Positions 1,300 to 27,100 of a stretch of DNA of 64,000 bases are shown here, in pieces. Source of the stretch: Escherichia coli (GTDB lineage: Bacteria; Pseudomonadota; Gammaproteobacteria; Enterobacterales; Enterobacteriaceae); NCBI RefSeq assembly GCF_024223415.1, contig NZ_CP100500.1. One strand, 5' to 3'. Position numbers and translations under genes: made by a program. The notes below the pieces were generated by a model that saw only the letters and a program-made list of their open reading frames with translations, was not told where the DNA came from and did no database searches. Position 1 is the first letter of the stretch. Every line of letters begins with the position of its first letter.

Positions 1300-1992
1300 C
1301 TAGTGATAACCACGCGCGGTCATAAAATCCGTAATCGCTTTTTCTGCATCAACCAGCACCTGTTCCAGTGGCTGATTGGCATCGATATCAACCAGTTGTG
1401 CACCACCAAAGGTTAACTGTGGCGTTATGGCAATCTTCCTCGCCAGCGATTCCCGTTTATGGTCGGGTTTACGCATGCAGGCAACTTCAAGGTCAACATT
1501 GAGTTTGATGACCAGATCAGGCTTATGGCTCGCCATCCAGTGAAACGCTTTACGTTCCTGGCTTGCCAGCCATGAGACAAAACGACCACCTTCAACGTTA
1601 GGTGGGAACACCGTACCATCGTAAGCGCCAGGAATTTGGTCCTGAGGATAACGGTCGGTTAGAACAATTAACCCGCGACGACGACAGGCAAGCATATGAC
1701 GAAAGCGCAGTAAGCGACGGGCGACAAACGCTGTAATTACCAGCGCCGGAACTGGTCCTGGCAATTTTTTTGCTGTTTTCACCTGATTTCGTTCAATTGT
1801 TTTATGTAAGGATTTTCCCATCAACGGTAATTTTGTCACTGCACGACCGACATTTCCGGCTTGTTTTCCTAAATGAACTCTTTCGGCAGCACCATATTTT
1901 TCGACAACGGTAATGAGATGTTCACACACCGTTGACTTGCCTGAACCATCGCTACCAATAACGGCAATTAATGGAGGTGTTATTGACTGCAT
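1300..1992 (-). CDS. yghT: P-loop NTPase / putative kinase, YghT-like
   Basis: 230 aa; N-terminal Walker [14 protein letters not shown]; paralogous to the two following genes; position matches recalled K-12 pitB-yghT order. Confidence 0.7.
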
Positions 1993-2165
1993 GAATATAT
2001 CCTTAAATTTAAATATCCATCCAAAATATTTATTTGGTTAATATGTTTTTATGAAAGCGTAATTCAGGTCAATGTCACAATTAACCATTGTCACAATAAG
2101 GTTGAACGGATATTCTGAGCACGGACCACGTAATATTCAATACATTATTTACTGCCGGGTTTTTC

Positions 2166-2879
2166 GTGAATCAACGTAATATGTCAATAATTAATTCCAC
2201 GCCAGTGCGTGTTATTGCCATTGTAGGATGTGATGGTTCAGGTAAATCGACCCTCACGGCAAGCCTGGTAAATGAACTGGCAGCAAGAATGCCAACAGAA
2301 CGCATTTATCTCGGGCAATCGTCCGGGCGAATTGGCGAATGGATTTCACAGCTCCCTGTTATTGGCGCACCTTTTGGGCGTTATCTGCGAAGTAAAGCGG
2401 CACATGTGCACGAAAAGCCCTCAACACCGCCTGGCAATATTACTGCACTGGTTATCTATCTGCTTTCCTGCTGGCGGGCGTACAAGTTTCGCAAAATGTT
2501 GTGTAGAAGCCAGCAAGGCCATCTGCTCATCACCGACCGCTACCCGCAGGTTGAAGTGCCGGGTTTTCGCTTTGATGGCCCGCAATTGGCAAAAACCACG
2601 GGCGGTAACGGTTGGATAAAAATGTTAAGGCAGCGCGAGTTGAAGCTGTACCAATGGATGGCGTCTTATTTACCCGTATTGTTGATTCGTCTTGGCATTG
2701 ATGAGCAAACCGCGTTTGCGCGTAAACCTGACCACCAACTGGCAGCGTTACAGGAAAAAATCGCCGTTACGCCGCAACTGACATTCAATGGCGCAAAGAT
2801 CCTTGAACTGGATGGTCGGCAACCAGCCGATGAAATTCTGCAAGCGTCACTACGCGCAATTCACGCCGCGCTTTCCTGA
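2166..2879 (+). CDS. yghS: P-loop NTPase / putative kinase, YghS-like
   Basis: 237 aa; Walker A IAIVGCDGSGKST; shared DRYPQ and RKPDH motifs with neighbours. Confidence 0.7.
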   Translation: MNQRNMSIINSTPVRVIAIVGCDGSGKSTLTASLVNELAARMPTERIYLGQSSGRIGEWISQLPVIGAPFGRYLRSKAAHVHEKPSTPPGNITALVIYLLSCWRAYKFRKMLCRSQQGHLLITDRYPQVEVPGFRFDGPQLAKTTGGNGWIKMLRQRELKLYQWMASYLPVLLIRLGIDEQTAFARKPDHQLAALQEKIAVTPQLTFNGAKILELDGRQPADEILQASLRAIHAALS

Positions 2880-2910
2880 TCACCAAAATGGATAGGGGAT
2901 GATTTAACGA

Positions 2911-3669
2911 ATGGATGCACTACAAACACAAACTGTTAATAGTACAACCGCGCCGCAGCCCAACTACATTCCGGGGCTGATTGCGGTGGTCGGGTGTGAT
3001 GGCACCGGTAAATCCACACTGACCACCGACCTGGTGAAATCGCTGCAACAACACTGGCAAACCGAGCGGCGCTATCTGGGGCTGCTCTCCGGCGAAGACG
3101 GCGACAAAATCAAACGATTGCCGTTGGTTGGCGTCTGGCTGGAACGGCGACTGGCGGCCAAATCCTCGAAAACCCAAAGCATGAAAACCAAATCTCCGGC
3201 GCTATGGGCGGCGGTGATTATGTACTGCTTCTCGCTGCGAAGAATGGCGAATCTACGCAAGGTTCAGCGACTGGCGCAAAGTGGCGTTCTGGTGGTCAGC
3301 GATCGCTTCCCGCAGGCTGAAATTTCGGGCTTTTATTATGACGGACCGGGGATTGGCGTCGAACGTGCGACCGGGAAAATCAGCATGTTTCTGGCGCAGC
3401 GCGAACGGCGTTTATACCAAAAAATGGCGCAATATCGCCCGGAATTAATTATTCGCCTGGGCATTGATATTGAGACTGCCATCTCCCGCAAGCCTGACCA
3501 TGACTATGCCGAGCTGCAGGACAAAATCGGCGTCATGTCGACGATTGGTTATAACGGCACAAAAATTCTTGAGATTGATTCCAGAGCGCCCTACAGCGAA
3601 GTGCTGGAACAGGCACAGAAGGCGGTTTCTCTGGTTGCCATCGTTTCTGACCGCCGAAGTTTAACTTAA
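2911..3669 (+). CDS. yghR: P-loop NTPase / putative kinase, YghR-like
   Basis: 252 aa; Walker A IAVVGCDGTGKST; same conserved blocks (DRFPQ, RKPDH) as yghS/yghT. Confidence 0.7.
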   Translation: MDALQTQTVNSTTAPQPNYIPGLIAVVGCDGTGKSTLTTDLVKSLQQHWQTERRYLGLLSGEDGDKIKRLPLVGVWLERRLAAKSSKTQSMKTKSPALWAAVIMYCFSLRRMANLRKVQRLAQSGVLVVSDRFPQAEISGFYYDGPGIGVERATGKISMFLAQRERRLYQKMAQYRPELIIRLGIDIETAISRKPDHDYAELQDKIGVMSTIGYNGTKILEIDSRAPYSEVLEQAQKAVSLVAIVSDRRSLT

Positions 3670-3714
3670 GGCTGGCGGGATACTTTTTACTATCAACGAT
3701 AAGGTCAGGCTGAA

Positions 3715-5064
3715 TTGGCGGGTTTTAACATCAAACATTGGTTTGCAGATGGCGCGTTTCGCACCATTATTCGCAATAGCGCCTGGTTAGGCTCCAGTAA
3801 TGTCGTGAGCGCCTTGCTGGGGCTGTTGGCGCTCTCGTGTGCCGGTAAAGGGATGACGCCCGCCATGTTTGGCGTACTGGTGATTGTGCAATCGTACGCC
3901 AAGTCGATCAGCGATTTTATTAAGTTTCAGACATGGCAGCTGGTGGTTCAGTACGGAACGCCAGCCTTGACCAACAATAATCCGCAGCAATTTCGCAATG
4001 TCGTCTCATTTTCCTTCTCGCTGGATATCGTCAGCGGCGCGGTGGCGATTGTCGGCGGCATTGCCTTACTGCCATTCCTTTCCCATTCATTAGGTCTGGA
4101 TGACCAAAGCTTTTGGCTGGCGGCGCTGTATTGCACGCTCATTCCTTCAATGGCTTCCTCCACGCCGACCGGCATTCTGCGTGCGGTAGATCGCTTTGAT
4201 TTGATTGCTGTACAGCAGGCGACGAAACCTTTTCTGCGCGCAGCGGGGAGCGTCGCAGCCTGGTATTTTGACTTTGGTTTTGCGGGTTTTGTTATTGCCT
4301 GGTACGTGTCGAATCTGGTTGGCGGCACCATGTACTGGTGGTTTGCCGCGCGCGAATTACGCCGCAGAAATATCCATAACGCCTTCAAATTGAATCTGTT
4401 TGAGTCTGCCCGACACATTAAAGGCGCGTGGAGTTTTGTCTGGTCAACCAACATTGCCCACTCCATCTGGTCGGCGCGTAACTCGTGCAGCACAGTGTTG
4501 GTGGGGATCGTGTTAGGACCCGCTGCCGCCGGGTTATTTAAAATCGCCATGACATTCTTCGACGCCGCCGGAACGCCAGCGGGTTTGCTGGGTAAAAGTT
4601 TTTACCCAGAGGTGATGCGTTTAGATCCGCGCACCACCAGACCGTGGTTGTTAGGTGTGAAGTCCGGTTTACTGGCGGGCGGAATCGGTATTCTGGTGGC
4701 GCTCGCGGTGTTGATCGTCGGCAAGCCGCTCATTTCGCTGGTGTTTGGCGTTAAGTATCTCGAAGCGTATGACCTGATTCAGGTGATGCTGGGCGCAATT
4801 GTGATTTCGATGCTGGGTTTCCCGCAGGAGTCATTGCTATTGATGGCGGGAAAACAGCGCGCTTTTCTCGTGGCGCAAACCATCGCCTCAATCGGCTACA
4901 TCGTATTGCTGTTCATGTTCTGTCATCTGTTTGGTGTGCTGGGAGCAGCGTTTGCTTACTTCGGTGGGCAATGTCTGGACGTGGCGCTCTCGTTAATTCC
5001 AACCTTAAAGGCATTTTTTCAGCGCCATTCCTTGCTTTATAACGCAGCCGGAGAGAAATCCTGA
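3715..5064 (+). CDS. yghQ: Polytopic inner-membrane protein, MOP-type flippase-like (YghQ-like); start codon uncertain
   Basis: Long hydrophobic ORF with multiple predicted TM helices; ORF track start is a TTG so the true start may lie downstream; stop overlaps next gene start (ATGA at 5062-5067). Confidence 0.55.
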   Translation: MAGFNIKHWFADGAFRTIIRNSAWLGSSNVVSALLGLLALSCAGKGMTPAMFGVLVIVQSYAKSISDFIKFQTWQLVVQYGTPALTNNNPQQFRNVVSFSFSLDIVSGAVAIVGGIALLPFLSHSLGLDDQSFWLAALYCTLIPSMASSTPTGILRAVDRFDLIAVQQATKPFLRAAGSVAAWYFDFGFAGFVIAWYVSNLVGGTMYWWFAARELRRRNIHNAFKLNLFESARHIKGAWSFVWSTNIAHSIWSARNSCSTVLVGIVLGPAAAGLFKIAMTFFDAAGTPAGLLGKSFYPEVMRLDPRTTRPWLLGVKSGLLAGGIGILVALAVLIVGKPLISLVFGVKYLEAYDLIQVMLGAIVISMLGFPQESLLLMAGKQRAFLVAQTIASIGYIVLLFMFCHLFGVLGAAFAYFGGQCLDVALSLIPTLKAFFQRHSLLYNAAGEKS

Positions 5065-5888
5065 TGATGAGAAAATATTTCCCGCTTGAGGCGAGCGGGC
5101 GTCTATTTGTTGCGATTGAAGAAGATGATGTCGTTGATGCACAGGTTAGTTTGCCGCCGACTATTGCACTAAGTTGTACCACCGAAATCATTCATGATAA
5201 TTACGCGTTATGCCTGCAATTCTGGCTCAATGGCGTTAATCGTCAGGAATTACTGCGTTTAGTTCGCAAACAAGCCAAAGGCGATGAGCTGACTGCTGAT
5301 GAGCGCAAACAATTTAAATACATGCGAGCGCGCTACAAGCACCTGCGTTTTGCGCAACGGCTGTATTTAAAGAAGCATCAGGCCGGATTTTTATTCGGCA
5401 AAACGACCGTTTTTCTGGGACGTTTTCAGGACGGGTTTCGTAACGGTAAGAAAAATATTGTGTCGTATTACGGCAACCTGTTACGGATTTATTTAAGCTC
5501 TCCGGTCTGGTCGTTGGTGAACTATTCATTACGCCATAGCCAGTTAGAAAGCGTAAGCGGTTTTATTGCCTATCGGCAAAAGCAAATGCATGCCCTGAAA
5601 GAGATAATTGCCAAACCGCGACTAACCGGCAGGGAATTTCATGATGTGCGAAAAATCATCAGCCAGCAGGTTTCTTATTACGACACCTTAAGATCGCTTG
5701 ATCCTGAAAATAAAGAGGCGTTACAGATTTCCCGTTTCCTCGCCGCCATTAATGGCCTGATGGGGGATAAACACGACGACATGGTGGCGGATGATATGGA
5801 AAACCGCCAGTCGTATGATGCACCGGTGGCGCAGGATAGCGATATTCGCCAGCGCTTAGAGCTGCTGATTTCGCGTTTTCCGCTATAA
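5064..5888 (+). CDS. Hypothetical protein (274 aa), translationally coupled to upstream flippase-like gene
   Basis: Intact ORF with ATG overlapping the upstream stop; no recognisable motif. Confidence 0.4.
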   Translation: MMRKYFPLEASGRLFVAIEEDDVVDAQVSLPPTIALSCTTEIIHDNYALCLQFWLNGVNRQELLRLVRKQAKGDELTADERKQFKYMRARYKHLRFAQRLYLKKHQAGFLFGKTTVFLGRFQDGFRNGKKNIVSYYGNLLRIYLSSPVWSLVNYSLRHSQLESVSGFIAYRQKQMHALKEIIAKPRLTGREFHDVRKIISQQVSYYDTLRSLDPENKEALQISRFLAAINGLMGDKHDDMVADDMENRQSYDAPVAQDSDIRQRLELLISRFPL

Positions 5889-5896
5889 CCGGAGCA

Positions 5897-6460
5897 ATGA
5901 TGTCATCTCGTTTGATTATTGCGCTGATTATCATGCTCTTAGCCCCGGGTGTGCAGGCACACAATTTCGTCACTGGCAAAACGGTTACCCCTGTTTATAT
6001 TCAGGAAGGCGGCGAGCTGCTTCTGAATAGCGACGACGAAATTCACTACCAAAAGTGGAACAGCACACAATTGGCGGGAAAAGTCCGCATTATCCAGTAT
6101 ATCGCCGGGCGTAAGTCGGCGAAGAAAAAGAACTCACTGTTAATTAAAGCGGTTGAAGCGGCAAACTTTCCGCAGGATCGTTTTCAGCCCACCACCATTG
6201 TGAACACCGATGATGCCATCTTTGGTACTGGCTATTTTGTTGTTGGCAAAATCGAAAAAAATAAACGCCGCTATCCGTGGGCGCAATTCGTTATCGACGG
6301 CAATGGACAGGGACGCGTTGCCTGGCGCTTGCCGGAGCAGAGTTCAACCATTCTGGTGCTGAATAAAGCCGGGCAAATTCAGTGGGCAAAGGACGGCAGC
6401 CTGACGCCGGTAGAGGTAGATCATGTCATTGCGCTGGCGCAGAAACTGATCAATGAATAA
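5897..6460 (+). CDS. Secreted/periplasmic protein with N-terminal signal peptide (possibly YtfJ-like)
   Basis: N-terminus MMSSRLIIALIIMLLAPGVQA is a typical Sec signal peptide; 187 aa soluble remainder. Confidence 0.45.
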   Translation: MMSSRLIIALIIMLLAPGVQAHNFVTGKTVTPVYIQEGGELLLNSDDEIHYQKWNSTQLAGKVRIIQYIAGRKSAKKKNSLLIKAVEAANFPQDRFQPTTIVNTDDAIFGTGYFVVGKIEKNKRRYPWAQFVIDGNGQGRVAWRLPEQSSTILVLNKAGQIQWAKDGSLTPVEVDHVIALAQKLINE

Positions 6461-6490
6461 AAAACTCAAAGGATTGAGGGCGTTAGTGAG

Positions 6491-7561
6491 ATGAAGCTGG
6501 TTGAACACTACATCATGCGTGGTACGCGCCGTCTGGTGCTGATTATCGTCGGTTTTCTGATCTTTATTTTCGCCAGCTACTCCGCACAGCGTTATCTGAC
6601 CGAAGCGGCAAATGGGACATTAGCACTTGATGTTGTGCTAGATATCGTTTTCTACAAAGTGCTGATTGCACTGGAGATGTTGTTACCTGTTGGACTGTAT
6701 GTGTCAGTTGGCGTGACGCTAGGGCAGATGTATACCGACTCGGAAATTACCGCTATCTCTGCGGCGGGGGGCAGTCCGGGACGCTTGTACAAAGCCGTTC
6801 TTTATCTGGCGATACCGCTAAGTATTTTTGTCACCCTTCTGTCGATGTATGGTCGTCCGTGGGCTTATGCGCAGATTTATCAACTGGAGCAGCAGTCGCA
6901 GTCGGAGCTGGATGTTCGCCAGTTGCGGGCAAAGAAATTTAACACTAACGATAACGGACGAATGATCCTTTCGCAGACGGTTGATCAGGATAATAATCGC
7001 CTGACTGACGCGCTGATTTATACTTCTACTGCCAATCGAACCCGCATTTTCCGCGCCCGTTCGGTTGATGTGGTTGACCCATCACCCGAGAAACCGACTG
7101 TTATGTTGCACAACGGCACTGCCTATCTTCTCGATCATCAGGGTCGTGACGACAACGAACAGATCTACCGTAATCTGCAATTACATCTGAATCCGCTGGA
7201 TCAAAGCCCTAACGTCAAACGCAAAGCGAAATCGGTCACGGAGCTGGCGCGCTCCGTCTTTCCAGCCGATCATGCCGAACTGCAATGGCGACAAAGCCGT
7301 GGCCTGACAGCATTGTTGATGGCGCTGCTGGCCATTTCATTAAGTCGGGTAAAACCGCGGCAGGGGCGATTTTCAACATTATTGCCACTGACGTTGCTGT
7401 TTATTGCCATTTTTTATGGCGGCGACGTCTGCCGTACGCTGGTGGCTAACGGCGCGATTCCCCTCATTCCTGGTTTGTGGTTAGTACCCGGACTCATGCT
7501 AATGGGCCTGCTGATGCTGGTCGCACGCGACTTCTCTTTGCTGCAGAAATTTTCCCGATGA
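6491..7561 (+). CDS. LptF/LptG (YjgP/YjgQ) family permease
   Basis: 356 aa; N-terminal region and TM topology typical of LptF/LptG family; paired with a second paralog immediately downstream. Confidence 0.6.
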   Translation: MKLVEHYIMRGTRRLVLIIVGFLIFIFASYSAQRYLTEAANGTLALDVVLDIVFYKVLIALEMLLPVGLYVSVGVTLGQMYTDSEITAISAAGGSPGRLYKAVLYLAIPLSIFVTLLSMYGRPWAYAQIYQLEQQSQSELDVRQLRAKKFNTNDNGRMILSQTVDQDNNRLTDALIYTSTANRTRIFRARSVDVVDPSPEKPTVMLHNGTAYLLDHQGRDDNEQIYRNLQLHLNPLDQSPNVKRKAKSVTELARSVFPADHAELQWRQSRGLTALLMALLAISLSRVKPRQGRFSTLLPLTLLFIAIFYGGDVCRTLVANGAIPLIPGLWLVPGLMLMGLLMLVARDFSLLQKFSR

Positions 7562-8637
7562 ATGTTTTCAGTCGCTATTTAATCCGTCATCTCTTTCTCG
7601 GTTTTGCCGCCGCCGCAGGGCTATTGCTGCCGCTTTTTACCACCTTCAACCTGATTAACGAACTGGATGATGTCAGCCCGGGCGGTTATCGCTGGACTCA
7701 GGCGGTGCTGGTGGTGCTAATGACCTTACCGCGCACACTGGTCGAACTTTCGCCGTTTATCGCCTTATTGGGAGGGATTGTTGGCCTGGGGCAGTTATCG
7801 AAAAACAGTGAGCTTACCGCCATTCGCAGCATGGGGTTTTCTATCTTCCGTATTGCACTGGTGGCGCTGGTTGCCGGGATATTGTGGACTGTTTCGTTAG
7901 GCGCGATAGATGAGTGGGTAGCGTCGCCGTTGCAGCAACAGGCGCTGCAAATCAAATCGACCGCCACTGCGTTGGGGGAGGACGATGATATTACCGGCAA
8001 TATGCTTTGGGCCAGGCGCGGTAATGAATTTGTAACGGTGAAATCGCTGAACGAGCAGGGCCAGCCGGTGGGCGTGGAGATTTTTCATTATCGTGACGAT
8101 CTCTCGCTCGAATCCTACATTTATGCACGCAGTGCCACCATTGAAGACGACAAAACGTGGGTCCTGCATGGTGTGAATCATAAAAAATGGCTGAATGGCA
8201 AAGAAACGCTGGAAACATTAGATAATCTTGCCTGGCAATCGGCCTTCACCAGTATGGATCTTGAAGAGCTATCGATGCCGGGGAATACTTTTTCTGTCCG
8301 TCAGCTTAATCATTACATCCATTATTTGCAGGAAACCGGGCAACCCAGCAGCGAATACCGCCTTGCACTGTGGGAAAAACTGGGGCAACCCATCCTGACC
8401 CTGGCGATGATTTTGCTGGCTGTGCCGTTTACCTTTAGTGCCCCGCGCTCGCCAGGGATGGGTAGCCGTCTCGCTGTAGGCGTCATCGTTGGCTTACTCA
8501 CCTGGATCAGCTATCAAATCATGGTCAATCTGGGATTGCTATTTGCGTTAAGCGCACCTGTTACCGCGCTCGGTTTACCGATAGCGTTTGTGCTGGTGGC
8601 GTTGAGCCTGGTGTATTGGTATGACAGACAACATTAA
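7558..8637 (+). CDS. LptF/LptG (YjgP/YjgQ) family permease, second paralog
   Basis: ATG at 7558 overlaps the upstream stop (ATGA); N-terminus MNVFSRYLIRHLFLGF typical of the family; ORF-track start at 7477 is probably an upstream extension. Confidence 0.6.
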   Translation: MNVFSRYLIRHLFLGFAAAAGLLLPLFTTFNLINELDDVSPGGYRWTQAVLVVLMTLPRTLVELSPFIALLGGIVGLGQLSKNSELTAIRSMGFSIFRIALVALVAGILWTVSLGAIDEWVASPLQQQALQIKSTATALGEDDDITGNMLWARRGNEFVTVKSLNEQGQPVGVEIFHYRDDLSLESYIYARSATIEDDKTWVLHGVNHKKWLNGKETLETLDNLAWQSAFTSMDLEELSMPGNTFSVRQLNHYIHYLQETGQPSSEYRLALWEKLGQPILTLAMILLAVPFTFSAPRSPGMGSRLAVGVIVGLLTWISYQIMVNLGLLFALSAPVTALGLPIAFVLVALSLVYWYDRQH

Positions 8638-8671: not shown

Positions 8672-9844
8672 TTACTGCTTCAGAGTAGCAAATGCCTGAA
8701 TGATGGCATCGATTTGCTCACGACTGTGGGCAGCGTTTACGCTACAGCGCAGCAGCGTGATGCCTGCAGGCGCGGCAGGTGGCAGGATAAGATTCACATA
8801 AACGCCCAGCGAAATAAGCTCGCGCCAGATGCGTAAACCTTCCTCTTTCGAACCGATTATTACCGGCACTACCGGACTAATATGTGAACTTAACTCATAA
8901 CCCAGTTTTTGCAGACCGTCATACAGATGGTTGGCGTTATCCATCAGCTTTTGCCGCAGCTCTGGTTGTGTGGCAATGGTTCTTAACGACGAGCGCACGG
9001 TCGCAATGCAGGACGGAGAAGGAGAGGCGGTAAAAATATACGGGCGGCTGCCGTAGCGCAGCACTTCCATCGCTTCCGAACCGACAGCAAAACCGCCAAT
9101 CGAGGCCAGACTTTTACTGAAGGTGCCAACGATAATATCCACATCATCTTCAACGCCGACAGCTTCAGCCAGTCCGCGCCCCGTTGCGCCTAACACGCCA
9201 AACGAATGCGCTTCATCGACAATCAAATAACCACCGAGACGACGTTTGATATCAACAATTTCCGCCAGCGGCGCAACGTCACCGAGCATGCTGTAGATAC
9301 CCTCAACGATGATAATCGCCTCTTTCGCCCGTTCACCGAGGCGAACCATGCGCCGTTCCAGATCTTTAGCATCGTTATGGCGGAAACGAATAATTTCCGC
9401 GCCACCGAGAGAACAGGCGTCATAAATACTGGCGTGGCTGTCAGCATCCAGTAACACCACGGCGTTATGGTCGGCAAGTGCGCTGATGACGCCTAAATTA
9501 GCGGTATAACCGGTTGAAAAAACGATAGCGGTAGGGCGATTGAAAAACTCAGCAATCTCTTTCTCTAACGCCAGATGCGGCGCATAACTGCCGTTTGCCA
9601 TACGAGAACCGGTGGTGCCGGTGCCTTGGGCCGCTAACGCTGCCTGACCTTCGGCGATGGCATCATGATTGAAGGTTAATCCGAGATAATTATTGGTCCC
9701 GGCCAGAATCACTTTTTTATTGCCGATCCGGCCTTCGGTGGCGGAATACACTTCATCAATACAGGTGCCAAACGGTGTTAACCCGTTGTCACTAAATTGC
9801 AGTCGCTCGCCAGCAAGGCGCGCATATTTATCGTATAGCCCCAT
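8672..9844 (-). CDS. PLP-dependent alpha-oxoamine synthase, serine palmitoyltransferase-like
   Basis: 390 aa; PLP-lysine block GTFSKSLASIGGF, which resembles the SPT signature more than BioF/Kbl; start overlaps ACP stop. Confidence 0.6.
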   Translation of the reverse strand: MGLYDKYARLAGERLQFSDNGLTPFGTCIDEVYSATEGRIGNKKVILAGTNNYLGLTFNHDAIAEGQAALAAQGTGTTGSRMANGSYAPHLALEKEIAEFFNRPTAIVFSTGYTANLGVISALADHNAVVLLDADSHASIYDACSLGGAEIIRFRHNDAKDLERRMVRLGERAKEAIIIVEGIYSMLGDVAPLAEIVDIKRRLGGYLIVDEAHSFGVLGATGRGLAEAVGVEDDVDIIVGTFSKSLASIGGFAVGSEAMEVLRYGSRPYIFTASPSPSCIATVRSSLRTIATQPELRQKLMDNANHLYDGLQKLGYELSSHISPVVPVIIGSKEEGLRIWRELISLGVYVNLILPPAAPAGITLLRCSVNAAHSREQIDAIIQAFATLKQ

Positions 9845-10092
9845 TATTTATTCTCCAGCCATGGAAGTAGAGTTTCCATTAATTGCGCAGGGGTTTTGAC
9901 ATCCAGCAGAATATTAATAGGAATGGAAATATCGAATCTGTCTTCCAGCATCATTAAGAGATCCATCACTTTGATCGACTCCAGGCCAAGATCGTTGACG
10001 AGATCGCTGTCGGGCTTAATTTCCACACCGTTTTCGACCAAATCCTGTAAACAGGAAAGGATGTAATCCATTACTATTTCACGATTTACCAT
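9844..10092 (-). CDS. Acyl carrier protein
   Basis: 82 aa; phosphopantetheine attachment-like motif DLGLESIKVMDL. Confidence 0.6.
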   Translation of the reverse strand: MVNREIVMDYILSCLQDLVENGVEIKPDSDLVNDLGLESIKVMDLLMMLEDRFDISIPINILLDVKTPAQLMETLLPWLENK

Positions 10093-10123: not shown

Positions 10124-11038
10124 TCAAAATAGCCCGTTGCGTAATGCGTGTTCCAGGCTAATCCCGGGAAACCAATTAATATCTTCAGAAATACGGTTAT
10201 TACTTGCCGACCAGTCGGCGTGGGTTAATTCACGAATTTTCGAGCGGGTCAGCATAGGTTCTTTACCTGCCAGGCGACTCAACGCGGTACTGATATCCGC
10301 AAGGCAGGTGAGTACCGGCAGAGGAATGCCAACCATCCGCACAGAACCACAACGGGCGTCGGCGGCAAGCTGTCGTACGCGTTGCCAGTCATAGCCGCCA
10401 GCGACGCCATCGCATAATTCATAGGTTTGCGTCTGTACAGTTTCGGCGCTTAACCACTGACCCACTGCTTGCGCAAAATCGGTGACGTGCAGGAAAGAGA
10501 GTTGTGTATCTGGCGCACCAAGTCGTGGCAGCAGGCCGCGCAGCATCCAATAAAACAGCGGTTTTAACTCTTTATCGCCGGGACCATACACGGCTGTCGG
10601 GCGAAAAACGCCCAGCGTAATTTTGTCAGCCATTGCAGTCAGCCGTTGTTCGGCGACGTATTTGGAATTTGCGTACCAGGAGAGTTCGGGATGGCGCGCC
10701 GCCAGCGAAGAGATAAACAGAAAACGTTGGCAAAAGCCGCTCTCTTTTGCTGCTTGCATCAGGCGCAGGCTGCCGTCAACGTTACAGTGGGTAAAAATCT
10801 CTTCTTTGTGTCCGCGCACTTGCCCGGCGCAATGGACCACCGCGCTGGCTCCGGCAACCAGTTCGCTAAGCGAATGTGTATCTTCCAGCGAACCGCGCAC
10901 CCAAGTAAGATTATCATTGACGTGAGCGCGGGCAGTACGCGTCAATGCGCGAACGTGAAAGCCGCGGGCGAGCAGGTTATCGATAATATATTTACCGATA
11001 AACCCGGTAGCGCCCGTCACCGCGACAGTTTGATTCAT
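10124..11038 (-). CDS. NAD(P)-dependent epimerase/dehydratase-family reductase
   Basis: Rossmann motif VAVTGATGFIGKYI directly after internal Met; ATG at 11038 overlaps stop of upstream ligase gene (ATGA). ORF-track N-terminal extension to 11248 considered spurious. Confidence 0.6.
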   Translation of the reverse strand: MNQTVAVTGATGFIGKYIIDNLLARGFHVRALTRTARAHVNDNLTWVRGSLEDTHSLSELVAGASAVVHCAGQVRGHKEEIFTHCNVDGSLRLMQAAKESGFCQRFLFISSLAARHPELSWYANSKYVAEQRLTAMADKITLGVFRPTAVYGPGDKELKPLFYWMLRGLLPRLGAPDTQLSFLHVTDFAQAVGQWLSAETVQTQTYELCDGVAGGYDWQRVRQLAADARCGSVRMVGIPLPVLTCLADISTALSRLAGKEPMLTRSKIRELTHADWSASNNRISEDINWFPGISLEHALRNGLF

Positions 11039-12783
11039 GCCAGGGATTCCTGCACATGAAGACTGGCAGCATAAGCCTTCTGATAACGTTTTTTCGCTTC
11101 CGCACGGGCAGGCTTGCCGGAGGACGTTCGGGGAATACTGTGGGGCGGCAACAGATCGATAGCCGCGGTCACGCCAAATTCGCTTTGGATCCGTGCTGCC
11201 AGCGCGTGGATAAGCTGCCCGCGACGTTCTTCGTCGCTGATCCGACACTGGATCTGCAAAATGATTTTTTCCTGGGCGGTAACAAAAGCAATCGCATCGC
11301 CAGAATGAATTTCCGGTTCCTGTTCCGCTATATATTCAATATCCTGCGGCCAGATATTACGGCCACGAATAATAATCAGATCTTTAATGCGTCCGGTGAC
11401 ATACAGATAACCGTCCAGCAGATAACCGAGGTCGCCGGTGTCTAACCAGCCCGTCGCGGCAATCTCGTCTTGCGAAGCCTGGTCGCCAAAGTAACCGCTC
11501 ATCAGGCTAGGGCCGGAGATGCAAATATGGCCTACCACACGTTCCGCGACAGGTATACCTGCTTCATTGCGGATTTCAATGCCATGTTCCGGCAACGCTT
11601 TACCGCAGTTGACGAAAGTCGATACGGCGCGTGTCTCTGCACCCGGCGCGACGGCTTTACCCTGATATTCGAGGATGTCGCGATCCACTTCGTTAACCAC
11701 AACCCCGGAGGCTTCATCAGAGAAGCTGACAGCCAGCGCATTTTCTGCCAGTCCGTAGCACGGCATGAAAGTTTTATTGTCAAAGTTAACCTGACGGAAA
11801 CATTCAGCGAATTGATGGAGTTGTTCTGCGGAGATGGGTTCTGCACCAATACCAGCGACGCGCCAGCAGGAAAGATCCAGTTCAGCGAGATCTTTTTCAT
11901 TCACGCGGCGCTGGCACAATTCATAGCCAAACGGCGGCGCAACGGAAACGGTGCCGCGATTTTTACTGATCAATTTAAGCCATTGCAGAGGACGCATGGC
12001 AAAATCCTGAGTGCGCAAATAATCTACTGAAAGTTGCGTGGCGACGGGGGTCAGGAGAAAGCCGACCAGTCCCATATCATGGTAGAAAGGCAGCCAGGAG
12101 ACGCAGCGGTCGCCAGGGCGTAATTTAATGCCGTCGTGGCTTATAGCACGTAGATTAGCCATCACTTCGCGATGGGTGATAATGACGCCACGGGGAAAAC
12201 GGGTGCTGCCGGAGGTGTACTGGAGGTAGGCGATATCGTCCGGAACTGGGCGCTGGAGCGCAACATCAGCTTCCGGTAATGCCTTAAACCAGGCATGGCT
12301 TAATACATGCAATTCGGGGTTGTTATGCGTGGCGGCATTGACCAGCGGCAACCACTCATCACCAGTGATAATGGCAGCGGGCTGGCAACTTGCCAGTAAA
12401 CCCTGCAGTTTGGCGCTCCAGGAATCCCGCTGACCGACGCCCATTGGAATCGCCAACGGGACGGCGACTAAGCCGGCATACTGGCAGGAAAAAAAAGCCT
12501 CTACGAACCCGCTACTGGTTTCGGCAATCAGCGCCACGCGATCGCCTTTTTTCAGGTTTAGCGATAACAACCGCTTCGCACCAGCTTCGGCACGCACTTT
12601 TAACGTCTGATATTCCAGTTGATCTTCAAGTTGGCAACGTCTGTCATAAAAATTCATTCCAGCGCTACTCAGAGCGGCGTAGTCCAAAGCATCAACCAGC
12701 GTTGGAAAATCGGCATAGCGCATAGGTAGGGAATGCGTAAAGATTTTATTAGACATATACACCACGAAAAAATTGGATATCAA
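11035..12783 (-). CDS. Fatty acyl-AMP ligase / acyl-CoA (or acyl-ACP) synthetase, ANL adenylating superfamily
   Basis: 582 aa; adenylate-forming enzyme blocks (YLQYTSGSTRFPRGV, GYGLAE-like, C-terminal conserved lysine region); first gene of a 4-gene minus-strand operon. Confidence 0.65.
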   Translation of the reverse strand: MISNFFVVYMSNKIFTHSLPMRYADFPTLVDALDYAALSSAGMNFYDRRCQLEDQLEYQTLKVRAEAGAKRLLSLNLKKGDRVALIAETSSGFVEAFFSCQYAGLVAVPLAIPMGVGQRDSWSAKLQGLLASCQPAAIITGDEWLPLVNAATHNNPELHVLSHAWFKALPEADVALQRPVPDDIAYLQYTSGSTRFPRGVIITHREVMANLRAISHDGIKLRPGDRCVSWLPFYHDMGLVGFLLTPVATQLSVDYLRTQDFAMRPLQWLKLISKNRGTVSVAPPFGYELCQRRVNEKDLAELDLSCWRVAGIGAEPISAEQLHQFAECFRQVNFDNKTFMPCYGLAENALAVSFSDEASGVVVNEVDRDILEYQGKAVAPGAETRAVSTFVNCGKALPEHGIEIRNEAGIPVAERVVGHICISGPSLMSGYFGDQASQDEIAATGWLDTGDLGYLLDGYLYVTGRIKDLIIIRGRNIWPQDIEYIAEQEPEIHSGDAIAFVTAQEKIILQIQCRISDEERRGQLIHALAARIQSEFGVTAAIDLLPPHSIPRTSSGKPARAEAKKRYQKAYAASLHVQESLA

Positions 12784-13126
12784 AAATAAAATGACAATAA
12801 TGCGGTGGATTATATAGGCATAAAAGATAAATGAGATAGTATTTTCATCGGTGTGAAAATGAACATTGATTTAAATAATGAGTTTAAGTTTTTTGTTTTT
12901 ATTGTGAATGATATTTAATTTATGAATATATTAAGAAGAAGCCTTGTCCGGTCGCCTTAAATCGACAAAAGGCATTGTGGCGCTTCTGCGTAGTCGCTGA
13001 CCCTATCGTAATCATTAATAAATACTATTTATTCGTCGTTTGTATTCATTGGGTTGATTATTAAGATGCCGTTCGTTGCTGTTGCAACCTGTTTTTCACC
13101 GTTAATTATTTGTTACCCACAGAACT

Positions 13127-14269
13127 ATGGAATGCGATCTGCTGATGATCAAAATTGAAAAAGTAATTAATAAAAACGACCTTAAGGCATTTATCGCTTT
13201 TCCGTCATCACTTTATCCCGACGATCCAAACTGGATACCCCCTTTATTCATTGAACGCAGCGAGCATTTGTCTGCGAAGAATCCGGGGACGGACCATATC
13301 ATCTGGCAGGCGTGGGTGGCAAAAAAAGCGGGGCAGATAGTTGGGCGTATTACCGCGCAAATAGATACCATGCACCGTGAGCGTTACGGTGAAGATACCG
13401 GTCATTTCGGAATGATTGACGCCATTGATGATCCGCAGGTTTTTGCCGCGTTGTTTGGCGCAGCGGAAGCGTGGTTGAAGTCACAAGGTGCAAGTAAGAT
13501 CAGCGGGCCTTTCAGCCTGAATATCAATCAGGAAAGCGGATTACTGATTGAAGGTTTTGACACACCACCCTGTGCGATGATGCCACACGGCAAACCGTGG
13601 TATGCCGCGCATATTGAACAATTGGGTTATCACAAAGGCATTGATTTACTGGCGTGGTGGATGCAGCGAACCGATCTCACTTTCTCTCCGGCGCTAAAAA
13701 AACTGATGGATCAGGTGCGTAAAAAGGTGACCATTCGCTGCATCAATCGCCAGCGGTTTGCCGAAGAGATGCAGATCCTGCGTGAGATTTTCAACTCTGG
13801 CTGGCAGCACAACTGGGGATTTGTGCCGTTTACCGAACATGAATTCGCGACCATGGGCGATCAACTTAAATATCTGGTGCCGGACGATATGATCTACATC
13901 GCTGAGATTGATTCTGCACCCTGCGCGTTTATTGTCGGCTTGCCGAACATCAACGAGGCGATTGCCGATCTGAACGGATCGCTCTTTCCCTTCGGCTGGG
14001 CAAAATTGCTGTGGCGTTTGAAAGTCAGCGGTGTGCGAACTGCACGAGTACCGCTGATGGGCGTGCGGGACGAGTATCAGTTCAGCCGCATCGGCCCGGT
14101 GATTGCGCTGTTATTGATTGAAGCCTTACGCGATCCGTTTGCCCGCCGGAAGATCGATGCGCTGGAGATGTCATGGATCCTCGAAACCAATACAGGCATG
14201 AATAACATGCTGGAACGCATTGGGGCGGAGCCGTACAAGCGTTACCGATTGTATGAAAAGCAGATTTAA
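13127..14269 (+). CDS. yghO: YghO-like acyltransferase (GNAT-like fold?), intact
   Basis: 380 aa intact ORF divergent from the ligase operon across an AT-rich intergenic region; corresponds by position to yghO, recalled as a pseudogene in K-12. Confidence 0.5.
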   Translation: MECDLLMIKIEKVINKNDLKAFIAFPSSLYPDDPNWIPPLFIERSEHLSAKNPGTDHIIWQAWVAKKAGQIVGRITAQIDTMHRERYGEDTGHFGMIDAIDDPQVFAALFGAAEAWLKSQGASKISGPFSLNINQESGLLIEGFDTPPCAMMPHGKPWYAAHIEQLGYHKGIDLLAWWMQRTDLTFSPALKKLMDQVRKKVTIRCINRQRFAEEMQILREIFNSGWQHNWGFVPFTEHEFATMGDQLKYLVPDDMIYIAEIDSAPCAFIVGLPNINEAIADLNGSLFPFGWAKLLWRLKVSGVRTARVPLMGVRDEYQFSRIGPVIALLLIEALRDPFARRKIDALEMSWILETNTGMNNMLERIGAEPYKRYRLYEKQI

Positions 14270-15028: not shown

Positions 15029-15278
15029 TCCCGGACCTCGTGCACAGGTAGGACCAATTTTTCTGTTCTTAACTCGCAAAACACGCACATCACGTAAGTG
15101 ATTATGTTACATCAATTTAACATTGAGTTAACCAAGACAAGGTCACAGAGCTGGAAAAAAAATGGTCTGACCGGTAGCTAAAGAGATAGACGAAAACGAA
15201 AAGCCCGCTTAATAACTGTTCACAGAAGCAGCGCGCAAAAATCAGCTGCCACACAACACAACTAAGCGAAGCCTACTC

Positions 15279-16778
15279 ATGAGCATCTTGTACGAAGAGC
15301 GTCTTGATGGCGCTTTACCCGATGTCGACCGCACATCGGTACTGATGGCACTGCGTGAGCATGTCCCTGGACTGGAGATCCTGCATACCGATGAGGAGAT
15401 CATTCCTTACGAGTGTGACGGGTTGAGCGCGTATCGCACGCGTCCATTACTGGTTGTTCTGCCTAAGCAAATGGAACAGGTGACAGCGATTCTAGCTGTC
15501 TGCCATCGCCTGCGTGTACCGGTGGTGACCCGTGGTGCTGGCACCGGGCTTTCTGGTGGCGCGCTGCCGCTGGAAAAAGGTGTGTTGTTGGTGATGGCGC
15601 GCTTTAAAGAGATCCTCGACATTAACCCCGTTGGTCGCCGCGCGCGCGTGCAGCCAGGCGTGCGTAACCTGGCGATCTCCCAGGCCGTTGCACCGCATAA
15701 TCTCTACTACGCACCGGACCCTTCCTCACAAATCGCCTGTTCCATTGGCGGCAACGTGGCAGAAAATGCCGGCGGCGTCCACTGCCTGAAATATGGTCTG
15801 ACCGTACATAACCTGCTGAAAATTGAAGTGCAAACGCTGGATGGCGAGGCACTGACGCTGGGATCGGATGCGCTGGATTCGCCTGGTTTTGACCTGCTGG
15901 CGTTGTTCACCGGATCGGAAGGTATGCTCGGCGTGACCACCGAAGTGACGGTAAAACTGCTGCCGAAGCCGCCCGTGGCGCGGGTTCTGTTAGCAAGCTT
16001 TGACTCGGTAGAAAAAGCCGGACTTGCGGTTGGTGACATCATCGCTAATGGCATTATCCCCGGCGGGCTGGAGATGATGGATAACCTGTCGATCCGCGCG
16101 GCGGAAGATTTTATTCATGCCGGTTATCCCGTCGACGCCGAAGCGATTTTGTTATGCGAACTGGACGGCGTGGAGTCTGACGTACAGGAAGACTGCGAGC
16201 GGGTTAACGACATCTTGTTGAAAGCGGGCGCGACTGACGTCCGTCTGGCACAGGACGAAGCAGAGCGCGTACGTTTCTGGGCCGGTCGCAAAAATGCGTT
16301 CCCGGCGGTAGGACGTATCTCCCCGGATTACTACTGCATGGATGGCACCATCCCGCGTCGCGCCCTGCCTGGCGTACTGGAAGGCATTGCCCGTTTATCG
16401 CAGCAATATGATTTACGTGTTGCCAACGTCTTTCATGCCGGAGATGGCAACATGCACCCGTTAATCCTTTTCGATGCCAACGAACCCGGTGAATTTGCCC
16501 GCGCGGAAGAGTTGGGCGGGAAGATCCTCGAACTCTGCGTTGAAGTTGGCGGCAGCATCAGTGGGGAACATGGCATCGGGCGAGAAAAAATCAATCAAAT
16601 GTGCGCCCAGTTCAATAGCGATGAAATCACGACCTTCCATGCGGTCAAGGCGGCGTTTGACCCCGATGGTTTGCTGAACCCTGGGAAAAACATTCCCACG
16701 CTACACCGCTGTGCTGAATTTGGTGCCATGCATGTGCATCACGGTCATTTACCTTTTCCTGAACTGGAGCGCTTCTGA
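15279..16778 (+). CDS. glcD: Glycolate oxidase FAD-linked subunit
   Basis: 499 aa; FAD-binding PCMH-type domain (RGAGTGLSGGA); first gene of glcDEFGB. Confidence 0.9.
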   Translation: MSILYEERLDGALPDVDRTSVLMALREHVPGLEILHTDEEIIPYECDGLSAYRTRPLLVVLPKQMEQVTAILAVCHRLRVPVVTRGAGTGLSGGALPLEKGVLLVMARFKEILDINPVGRRARVQPGVRNLAISQAVAPHNLYYAPDPSSQIACSIGGNVAENAGGVHCLKYGLTVHNLLKIEVQTLDGEALTLGSDALDSPGFDLLALFTGSEGMLGVTTEVTVKLLPKPPVARVLLASFDSVEKAGLAVGDIIANGIIPGGLEMMDNLSIRAAEDFIHAGYPVDAEAILLCELDGVESDVQEDCERVNDILLKAGATDVRLAQDEAERVRFWAGRKNAFPAVGRISPDYYCMDGTIPRRALPGVLEGIARLSQQYDLRVANVFHAGDGNMHPLILFDANEPGEFARAEELGGKILELCVEVGGSISGEHGIGREKINQMCAQFNSDEITTFHAVKAAFDPDGLLNPGKNIPTLHRCAEFGAMHVHHGHLPFPELERF

Positions 16779-23711: not shown

Positions 23712-23748
23712 AGCCGGATGATCGTCAATATCATCCGGCTTCATTTAC
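23712..23748 (+). terminator. Rho-independent terminator after glcA
   Basis: Inverted repeat agccggatgat-cgtcaat-atcatccggct followed by a T-rich tract. Confidence 0.6.
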
Positions 23749-24187
23749 ATTATTCTGTCTTATTAATTGAAAATCATTTCTCGCTTTATTATCCATGCAG
23801 CAATAATGTTTTGCGTTCAGATAACCTGCTAAATAATTAAGAGCGTGAGGACATCTATTTTTTTATCACGCAAAACAAGTCTGTATTAATTATGTTCGCT
23901 TGATGAGCAAACACCGTTCTATCTGTTGCTTTTGCAATCTTAATCGTTAAAACTACCAACGAATTTATATAGTTACGTTGTGAAATGTTGTTAATTTTTT
24001 GTTTATTGAAATTTCGTAAAAATAGCCAGATAGACATCGTATAGGGGTTATTCTTATAAATTTCACCTGTTTTCTATCAATGATGTCGTTTTCTTAAGAA
24101 TGGAGGAAATTATTAAAGAAGATAAAGCATAAAACTATTTCTCCCAGTTACGAATTTTTTAACATTGTTTTGTCACTTGCGTTATTA
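23749..24187 (+). promoter_or_regulatory. AT-rich upstream regulatory region of sslE
   Basis: ~440 bp markedly AT-rich, ORF-poor stretch ahead of sslE; typical of silenced/regulated promoters of secreted virulence factors. Confidence 0.35.
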
Positions 24188-27100
24188 ATGAATAAGAAAT
24201 TTAAATATAAGAAATCGCTTTTAGCGGCTATTTTGAGTGCAACCCTGTTAGCCGGTTGTGATGGCGGTGGCTCCGGATCTTCCTCCGATACGCCGCCTGT
24301 AGATTCTGGAACAGGGTCTTTGCCGGAAGTGAAACCTGATCCAACACCAAACCCGGAGCCGACGCCTGAGCCAACGCCGGACCCAGAGCCTACGCCAGAA
24401 CCGACACCTGATCCTGAACCAACACCAGAACCGGAGCCAGAACCTGTTCCTACGAAAACGGGTTATCTGACCCTGGGCGGAAGCCAGCGGGTAACTGGTG
24501 CTACCTGTAATGGTGAATCCAGCGATGGCTTTACATTTAAACCTGGCGAGGACGTTACTTGCGTGGCGGGTAACACGACAATTGCCACCTTCAACACTCA
24601 GTCAGAAGCTGCGCGTAGCCTGCGTGCGGTTGAAAAAGTGTCGTTTAGTCTTGAGGACGCTCAAGAACTGGCGGCTTCCGACAATAAGAAAAGCAATGCG
24701 GTTTCGCTGGTAACGTCCAGTAACAGCTGTCCGGCGGATACAGAACAGGTTTGCCTGACGTTCTCCTCGGTGATAGAGAGTAAACGTTTCGACTCGCTGT
24801 ATAAGCAAATCGATCTGGCACCGGAAGAGTTCAAAAAGCTGGTCAATGAAGAGGTGGAAAACAATGCTGCGACCGATAAAGCGCCATCAACTCATACTTC
24901 ACCGGTCGTGCCCGTCACCACGCCGGGAACAAAACCGGATCTGAACGCTTCCTTCGTGTCGGCTAACGCGGAACAGTTTTATCAGTATCAACCCACTGAA
25001 ATCATTCTCTCCGAAGGCCGACTGGTGGATAGCCAGGGATATGGTGTTGCTGGCGTCAACTACTACACCAATTCAGGCCGTGGCGTGACAGGGGAAAATG
25101 GTGAATTTTCCTTTAGCTGGGGCGAAACCATCTCCTTTGGTATTGATACCTTTGAACTGGGGTCAGTGCGCGGCAATAAGTCGACCATTGCGCTGACTGA
25201 ACTGGGTGATGAAGTTCGCGGGGCGAATATTGATCAGCTTATTCATCGCTATTCGACGACCAGGCAAAATAATACCCGTGTTGTGCCGGACGATGTACGC
25301 AAGGTCTTTGCCGAATATCCCAACGTGATCAACGAGATTATCAATCTCTCGTTATCCAACGGTGCGACGCTGGATGAAGGTGAGCAAGTTGTTAATCTGC
25401 CAAACGAATTTATTGAGCAGTTTAATACGGGTCAGGCCAAAGAGATCGATACCGCGATTTGTGCGAAAACCGATGGTTGTAACGAGGCTCGCTGGTTCTC
25501 GCTGACGACGCGCAATGTTAATGACGGCCAGATTCAGGGCGTTATTAACAAGCTGTGGGGTGTGGATGAAGATTACAAATCGGTGACGAAATTCCACGTC
25601 TTTCATGACTCTACCAACTTCTATGGCAGCACTGGTAATGCGCGCGGTCAGGCGGTGGTGAATATCTCCAACGCGGCCTTCCCAATTCTGATGGCGCGTA
25701 ATGATAAAAACTACTGGCTGGCGTTTGGCGAAAAACGCGCCTGGGATAAAAACGAGCTGGCGTACATTACGGAAGCGCCTTCTCTTGTTGAGCCGGAAAA
25801 CGTTACGCGCGATACCGCCACCTTTAACCTGCCGTTTATTTCGCTGGGGCAAGTCGGTGAGGGCAAACTGATGGTTATCGCTAACCCGCACTACAACAGC
25901 ATTTTGCGTTGCCCGAACGGTTACAGCTGGAACGGGGGCGTTAATAAAGACGGGCAGTGTACGCTCAGCGGTGATTCAGATGACATGAAGCACTTCATGC
26001 AGAACGTACTGCGCTATCTGTCCGACGATAAATGGACGCCGGACGCGAAAGCCAGCATGACCGTAGGCACCAACCTGGATACTGTCTATTTCAAACGTCA
26101 TGGTCAGGTTACAGGAAACAGCGCTGAGTTCGGCTTTCATCCGGATTTTGCGGGTATCTCTGTTGAGCATTTAAGTAGCTATGGCGATCTCGACCCGCAG
26201 GAAATGCCGCTGCTGATCCTCAACGGCTTTGAGTATGTGACTCAGGTTGGTAATGATCCTTATGCAATCCCGCTGCGTGCAGATACCAGCAAACCGAAGC
26301 TGACTCAGCAGGATGTGACCGATTTGATCGCCTATATGAACAAAGGTGGAGCGGTGCTGATCATGGAAAACGTGATGAGCAATCTTAAGGAAGAGAGCGC
26401 GTCTGGTTTTGTGCGTCTGTTGGATGCTGCAGGTCTGTCAATGGCACTGAACAAGTCGGTGGTGAATAACGATCCTCAAGGGTATCCGAACCGCGTTCGT
26501 CAGCAGCGCGCAACGGGCATTTGGGTCTATGAACGTTATCCTGCCGTAGACGGTGCGCTGCCGTACACCATCGATAGTAAGACAGGGGAAGTTAAGTGGA
26601 AATATCAGGTAGAAAACAAACCTGATGACAAACCGAAACTGGAAGTTGCCAGCTGGCAGGAGGAAGTTGAGGGCAAACAGGTAACGCGTTATGCCTTTAT
26701 TGATGAGGCGGAGTTTAAAACAAAAGAGTCTCTGGAGGCTGCAAAGGCAAAAATCTTTGAGAAGTTTCCTGGATTACAGGAGTGTAAGGACTCGACATAT
26801 CACTACGAAATCAACTGTCTGGAATACCGTCCTGGTACGAAAGTTCCGGTAACCGGTGGCATGTATGTTCCGCAGTATACGCAACTGAATCTCAGCGCCG
26901 ATACTGCGAAAGCGATGGTGCAGGCGGCGGATTTAGGCACCAACATTCAGCGTCTGTATCAGCACGAGCTTTACTTCCGTACCAATGGTCGCAAAGGTGA
27001 GCGTCTGAGCAGCGTCGATCTGGAACGTCTGTACCAGAACATGTCGGTCTGGCTGTGGAATAAAATTGAATATCGCTATGAAAACGACAAGGATGACGAG

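Follow-up and report, generated by a model that had tools for sequence, protein, structure and literature searches.

Our analysis indicates that a 370 bp intergenic gap of Escherichia coli is probably the bidirectional promoter and operator of the dihydroceramide gene cluster of this species. The gap (12757..13126, no strand assigned; GC 31.9%, i.e., 68% AT) lies within a stretch of 64,000 nucleotides, here called the window, and separates aasR, the first gene of a four-gene operon on the minus strand, from yghO, a monocistronic gene on the plus strand. RNA polymerase would transcribe aasR-epi-acpR-spt to the left and yghO to the right, and for the leftward direction it would most likely use an invariant TATAAT at 12814-12809. 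The AT-rich tract would be a likely platform for H-NS-type nucleoid proteins, keeping both arms off in the laboratory until a relieving signal arrives. The ceramide gene cluster has already been published and its regulation has not; in other respects the gap is an intergenic promoter region of the usual kind.

Flanking genes and limits of the gap

The identity of the flanking genes places the gap between the two arms of one pathway. At the minus-strand side, aasR (11035..12756) codes for a fatty acyl-AMP ligase/acyl-AcpR synthetase (NCBIfam NF006624, 867 bits) equivalent to ECD_02851 (PMC9386255). It is followed by epi (10124..11038), a CerR-type NAD-dependent reductase (PF01370 match) whose gene overlaps the aasR stop by 4 bp, by acpR (9844..10092), a specialised acyl carrier protein (PF00550; ECD_02853), and by spt (8672..9844), a serine palmitoyltransferase recognized by the NCBIfam equivalog NF047599 (600 bits vs. 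a cut-off of 500). The operon is tightly packed, with overlaps of 4 bp and 1 bp, the first base of spt being the last base of acpR. At the other side, yghO (13127..14269, plus strand, start probably at 13145) corresponds to aca, ECD_02850 (PMC9386255), a GNAT N-acyltransferase of the aca/bCerS type; YghO itself has no Pfam match, and an ortholog with 80% identity passes the GNAT model PF00583. In BL21(DE3) the genes ECD_02851-02854 were named aasR, epi, acpR and spt, and yghO (ECD_02850) was named aca, an acyl-CoA N-acyltransferase (Padilla-Gomez et al., 2022, PMC9386255). The locus therefore has the make-up of a bacterial ceramide synthesis cluster of the Rhodobacteria type, i.e., Spt with a dedicated AcpR and AasR adjoining, plus a CerR/epi-type reductase and a GNAT-type N-acyltransferase (aca/bCerS). 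The sequence-only reading had recognized the arrangement of a minus-strand operon facing a plus-strand yghO, while its names for the former, lipid operon and ligase operon, were imprecise.

Among seven genomes compared, the five dihydroceramide genes were found clustered only in Caulobacter and E. coli, and the E. coli BL21 proteins have been partly shown to be active or cross-compatible (PMC9386255). The same five enzyme families are found in Caulobacter crescentus (spt CC_1162, acpR CC_1163, epi/cerR CC_1164, aasR CC_1165 and aca/bcerS CC_1154). The position of the acyltransferase differs, being several genes away in Caulobacter but head-to-head with aasR in E. coli and other Enterobacterales. 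Next to the operon, at 1300-8637, the window contains three dTMP-kinase-like paralogs (yghT/S/R), a flippase-like yghQ, a hypothetical protein, a YtfJ-family protein and a second lptF/lptG pair. These genes accompany the ceramide genes in many genera with their order shuffled, and may serve for head-group modification and lipid export, by possible analogy with the ceramide kinase and the Lpt-like transport of Caulobacter. The omega values of aasR and yghO were between 0.04 and 0.11 in Escherichia, a strong purifying selection that implies that both genes must be expressed somewhere. A value of 0.71 obtained for aasR of Escherichia whittamii (L008) was an artefact of a frame offset in fixed-length extraction, and was disregarded.

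The AT-richness of the region is real and not a chance fluctuation. Positions 12784-13126 have a GC of 0.321 vs. a window mean of 0.515 (sd 0.052, in windows of 343 bp), and only 0.59% of the 343-bp windows along the 64 kb reach values as low, so that this is one of three AT troughs. Among the 14 intergenic gaps of at least 50 bp within the window, the one between aasR and yghO has the fourth lowest GC, and the second lowest when only those above 200 bp are considered, after glcA|sslE (30.0%). An AT content far above the average across several hundred bp is what characterizes H-NS-silenced regions, and the gap has it.

The limits of the gap depend on the start codons at both sides. The left edge at 12784, given by the sequence-only reading, could be traced to the TTG at 12783 that opens the longest ORF. 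The window matches E. coli O78 strain 3 at 100% identity, and the PGAP annotation starts the fatty acyl-AMP ligase at 12723 and yghO at 13127. When the upstream sequences of 45 orthologous loci were aligned, an in-frame ATG at 12756, located 11 codons upstream of the PGAP methionine (MSNKIFTHSLP-MRYADF), was conserved in most genera, and the PGAP methionine was replaced by I, L or Q in 11 of the 45. From these alignments aasR most likely starts at ATG 12756, and not at 12723 or at TTG 12783, which gives the gap its true extent of 12757-13126 (370 bp); the gap as first described stands, with its left coordinate displaced by 27 bp. At the other side, the yghO orthologs outside Escherichia all start at an ATG aligned with the E. 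coli Met7 (13145), in every case preceded by a TAAGG Shine-Dalgarno that has been lost in Escherichia, where there is an additional in-frame ATG at 13127. The comparison suggests that yghO probably starts at 13145, so that the right edge of the gap may be at 13144.

Divergent synteny and distribution of the gap

We searched for YghO in species-representative genomes and recovered 45 loci. In every locus long enough to judge (approximately 16 genera and 45 species) aasR and yghO were head-to-head. The genera involved were Escherichia, Shimwellia, Citrobacter, Pseudocitrobacter, Pluralibacter, Serratia, Erwinia, Tatumella, Klebsiella (K. indica), Rosenbergiella, Cedecea, Hafnia, Pantoea, Sodalis, Pseudomonas and Stutzerimonas. 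The side and order of yghQRST, the lptF/lptG paralogs and ytfJ vary between loci. The orthologous gaps measured between 303 and 1128 bp, and all of them had a GC below that of their flanks. That the divergent pair has been kept while its neighbors were shuffled is the strongest support that we have for a shared control region. Besides, since aasR heads a packed operon and yghO stands alone, both promoters must lie in the gap, a point of which we are nearly certain. The gap is thus flanked by the first genes of two divergent units, in an arrangement whose conservation in evolution implies co-regulation, and the earlier proposal of a divergent shared regulatory region is well supported by the operon packing, by the single pathway represented in both arms and by the conserved synteny. 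A known case of a head-to-head pair sharing one intergenic region is found within the same window, the glcC-glcD control region (15041-15290). The latter has 250 bp and 42% GC and separates a regulator from its target operon, while aasR and yghO are both structural genes with no regulator gene adjacent.

Among 5426 complete E. coli genomes, the gap was found in 4163, spt in 4134 and the body of yghO in 4546. Three independent deletions associated with IS elements end in or at the gap. In K-12 (L002 8147-9341) an IS5 is inserted approximately 40 bp inside yghO and the deletion extends onward to the 3′ part of yghQ, leaving K-12 without the whole ceramide operon. In strain VG1046-3E9 (L003 6054-6751) an IS1 abuts the start of aasR, and in ATCC 8739 (L052 2748-3445) another IS1 is located near 12839. 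The AT-rich gap serves as a landing pad for IS elements. Farther along the window, downstream of the gsp operon, there is an island (40984-64000) with an IS3 element, two integrase genes, one of them frameshifted, and several defence-like genes (a DEAD/DEAH helicase, a TerB-N protein, an AbiEii toxin with its DUF6088 partner and AAA ATPases).

Anatomy of the gap

The conservation inside the gap was analyzed by aligning seven Escherichia sequences, which differ from the window at synonymous sites by dS values of up to 0.34-0.44. On this alignment the gap is made of three parts, a constrained aasR side, a hypervariable middle and an intermediate yghO side. The 124 bp proximal to aasR (12757..12880, minus strand), which we take for the putative promoter, leader and operator of this gene, are nearly invariant in Escherichia and under strong purifying selection. 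The JC distance to the most distant Escherichia was at most 0.067 vs. the dS of 0.34-0.44, i.e., about 5–6 times slower than synonymous sites, and 4150 of 4151 E. coli genomes carry this block at 95% identity or more, 2543 of them at 99% or more. A GC-richer island (12935..13001, no strand assigned) diverges instead faster than synonymous sites, with JC distances of 0.92, 0.53, and 0.27 vs. dS values of 0.34-0.44, 0.27-0.33, and 0.08-0.12. The 124 bp that include it (12881-13004) were at least 99% identical in 56 of 4153 genomes and fell below 95% in 731. Compared with the synonymous sites of the flanking genes the island diverges two to three times faster, a figure in which mutational hot spot, recombination and alignment noise are not separated. 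The 125 bp proximal to yghO show a divergence of up to 0.34, intermediate between the left block and the island. In E. whittamii the gap (L008 7598-8000) is 94.9% identical to that of the window vs. 90.1% for its flanking aasR, which hints at cross-species recombination at this locus.

Promoter candidates were found on both strands. On the minus strand, a perfect -10 TATAAT (12809..12814) is separated by a spacer of 17 from a poor -35, ATCTCA, with a predicted start near 12802 and a leader of approximately 46 nt. The combination ranks third in the PWM scan, with a -10 score of 8.7. This hexamer is invariant in the seven Escherichia sequences, and aligned to it are TATAAT in Hafnia, TAAAAT in C. 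amalonaticus and TATAAC in Pseudocitrobacter. The top PWM score corresponds to an alternative aasR candidate on the same strand, TTCACA-16-TAAACT (12881..12908, start near 12874), with a -10 that is not conserved. For yghO there is a plus-strand candidate TTGTGA-19-TATATT (12902..12932, start near 12939), which falls within a conserved patch (12899-12936) and shares its -35 position with the previous minus-strand candidate, and a second one in the PWM scan, TTGTAT-16-TAAGAT (13040..13067); neither is compelling. Two length polymorphisms are present in the gap, one of T6/T7 at 12886-12891, inside the minus-strand candidate, and a 5-6-nt duplication (ACAGA/CAGAAC) at 13119-13120, directly upstream of the yghO ATG at 13127, both with their longer forms in BL21 and in strain 25DN.

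Promoter prediction, which the sequence-only reading had named as a check, gave therefore candidates in both directions, the invariant TATAAT among them. In the sigma-70 consensus and PWM scans of the gap, match counts and top scores were no better than those of composition-matched shuffles, so that it is conservation that carries the promoter calls. On this basis we give an even chance to TATAAT 12814-12809 being the aasR promoter. Without a usable -35, such a promoter would need a protein bound at the conserved 12815-12880. A good -10 with no -35, located downstream of 60–70 invariant bp, would be how activator-dependent or counter-silenced promoters typically look. A literature search retrieved no transcription-start, ChIP or expression study of the aasR|yghO locus, and no regulatory data on the ceramide genes of E. 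coli or Caulobacter.

In most other Enterobacterales the gap has 640–840 bp and contains a conserved central module of approximately 110 nt, with the elements CAGTATGcCGcAAGA, AAAAGTGAA-N4-TCATTT and AGCATTAAGTGGTAAAA, the last one usually located 305–350 nt upstream of yghO. In its extended form, AGCATTAAGTGGTAAAA(n)AT(A)GC (L010 7670-7690, L011 7889-7910, L021 7434-7455 and others), this motif is absent from Escherichia and in some genera lies between the arms of an inverted repeat, AGCATT...AATGCT; it could be taken either for an extended -10 (TGnTAAAAn) or for a candidate protein-binding site. A profile of the module searched with nhmmer matched fully in 17 loci, partially in 7 and not at all in the seven Escherichia gaps, indicating that Escherichia has lost the module and keeps only the aasR-proximal leader in homology with the other genera. 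In 12 loci of Serratia, Tatumella, Klebsiella indica and Pantoea the module opens with an exact TAAACA-N5-TAAACA (L015 5793-5809; L023 4362-4378; L025 7625-7641; L040 7603-7619; L042 7607-7623; L050 7621-7637; and six more), of which each locus has a single copy, located within the gap in all cases and with a variable spacer. In the PhoP regulons of E. coli and Salmonella the PhoP box has the consensus (T/G)GTTTA-N5-(T/G)GTTTA, of which we take this repeat to be the reverse complement. PhoP control of the ceramide genes can thus be predicted from the motif in these four groups; the repeat lies over 300 nt away from either start codon, which is atypical of a PhoP-activated promoter. No PhoP box with two or fewer mismatches was found in any of the seven Escherichia gaps. 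Elsewhere in the window, a PhoP-box-like repeat with one mismatch, TAAACAAAAAATTAACA, is located on the minus strand at 23989-24005, in the glcA-sslE gap upstream of sslE.

Other types of elements were sought in the gap. Neither the gap nor eight orthologous loci had any Rfam match. Four segments and the aasR leader were folded, with z-scores between -0.9 and +0.35, none of them significant, and RNAalifold found 0 pairs in 17 leaders from other genera. A cis-regulatory RNA (riboswitch, leader or sRNA) was discarded for lack of a family match and of a conserved stable structure. Small ORFs were also sought, down to 20 aa in the gap and down to 40 aa in the long gaps of the other genera, and none was conserved. 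All this, together with the GC of 32% vs. 51.5%, bears out the description of the stretch as AT-rich and non-coding. No shared regulator site for both arms was identified in the gap. A 17-bp palindrome, AATAAATAcTATTTATT (13017..13033, no strand assigned), kept in E. coli proper and not in two cryptic Escherichia lineages, is a lead only and was rejected as such a site, not being significant against shuffles (P = 0.067). Also discarded were a terminator-like hairpin before yghO (13075-13088), at chance level (one seen, 0.8 expected) and removed by a 7-nt deletion in two Escherichia lineages; a CRP-like TGTGA at 12852, a half-site that is not conserved (TGCGA in other strains); a dyad ATTTTCA-N6-TGAAAAT (12841-12864), found only in the window and BL21, the other six aligned Escherichia having GATATT for GAAAAT; three copies of TCATTT whose spacing is not helical; and an 11-nt direct repeat near both gap edges, for which we estimate a chance expectation of about 1.5 such pairs. 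The gap sequence is single-copy in E. coli genomes (median of one place per genome).

Laboratory silence and alternative explanations

The AT content, a precedent within the same window and the silence of BL21 lead us to predict that H-NS binds and silences the gap, to which we give somewhat better than even chances. The precedent is the region upstream of sslE (yghJ)-gsp (23716-24199), located 11 kb from the gap and similarly AT-rich (30.0% GC over 484 bp). There, strong repression by H-NS at ambient temperature, its interplay with Fis and the promoter itself have been experimentally shown (PMC5012682). The sslE promoter region is unidirectional, whereas the aasR|yghO gap is divergent. In published data, BL21(DE3) with an empty vector had no 3-oxo-sphinganine in cells or extracts, and plasmid-borne SPT alone yielded no product, indicating that the chromosomal acpR and aasR were not supplying their part. 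The gap of BL21 is approximately 97.5% identical to that of the window, and this silence fits the cryptic expression that the sequence-only reading had suggested for the cluster. For the H-NS nucleation motif, TCGATAAATT, one match with two or fewer mismatches was found in the gap, which is the chance level. A high-affinity motif is not required for H-NS binding. The flanking genes have an ordinary GC of approximately 52%, so that H-NS would have no extended AT-rich tract along which to spread. The H-NS ChIP data of K-12, the strain best covered by ChIP, are of no use here, since this strain has lost the region.

A plainer explanation would have the gap as a spacer with two independent weak promoters, with the ordinary AT-richness of non-coding DNA and no role for H-NS. 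The silence would then be due to a missing activator or signal and to poor translation signals, the Shine-Dalgarno of yghO being lost and that of aasR a weak GGTG. This would agree with the chance-level counts of promoter-like and H-NS motifs, with the presence in the window of three other gaps that are equally or more AT-rich, and with the TAAGG that precedes yghO in all the other genera and was lost in Escherichia. We regard it as possible but doubtful, because 32% GC over 370 bp is among the lowest 0.6% of the window and matches the H-NS-repressed region upstream of sslE, and because the divergent pairing is conserved far beyond the need of independent promoters.

The conservation of the 124-bp left block, far above that of synonymous sites, could also be ascribed to an unannotated small RNA or small protein gene. 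Short ORFs are present in the gap, the candidate being one of 12 codons, MKILSHLSFMPI, on the aasR strand (12848-12810). This is very unlikely given that Rfam yielded no match, that the fold z-scores (-0.5 to -0.9) are not significant and that no consensus structure is shared by the leaders of other genera. None of the small ORFs is preceded by a ribosome-binding site, and indels in other Escherichia disrupt those lying outside the block. It is hardly credible that the ancestral control region was replaced by a mobile element or a recombination junction, of which the gap would be a mostly functionless scar. Strong constraint acts on the left block and the gap sequence is single-copy in E. coli genomes, against what could be expected from the missing central module, the hypervariable middle island and the IS1 and IS5 deletions that end at the gap; the 11-nt direct repeat near both edges, which could be taken as a footprint of such an event, is expected by chance.

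Coming back to a bidirectional control region, one could go further and propose that in Escherichia the ancestral module, bearing the PhoP box and still found in Serratia, Tatumella, Pantoea and Klebsiella indica, was replaced by a shorter and more AT-rich silencer together with a new, tightly conserved 124-bp operator for aasR, so that the pathway would be held by H-NS, triggered by the host or the environment and functional in approximately three quarters of the strains. We consider this extension unlikely as it stands. E. coli is a textbook example of a bacterium without sphingolipids. If the replacement of the module by a silencer were true, it would make sphingolipids conditionally. Of the complete E. 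coli genomes, 76% carry an intact set of ceramide genes that is under purifying selection and silent in the laboratory, and the 370-bp gap is the place where this silence must be set. The loss of the region in K-12 explains why the regulatory maps based on this strain are silent about the locus, and the anatomy of the gap makes the question of when E. coli makes ceramide directly testable.
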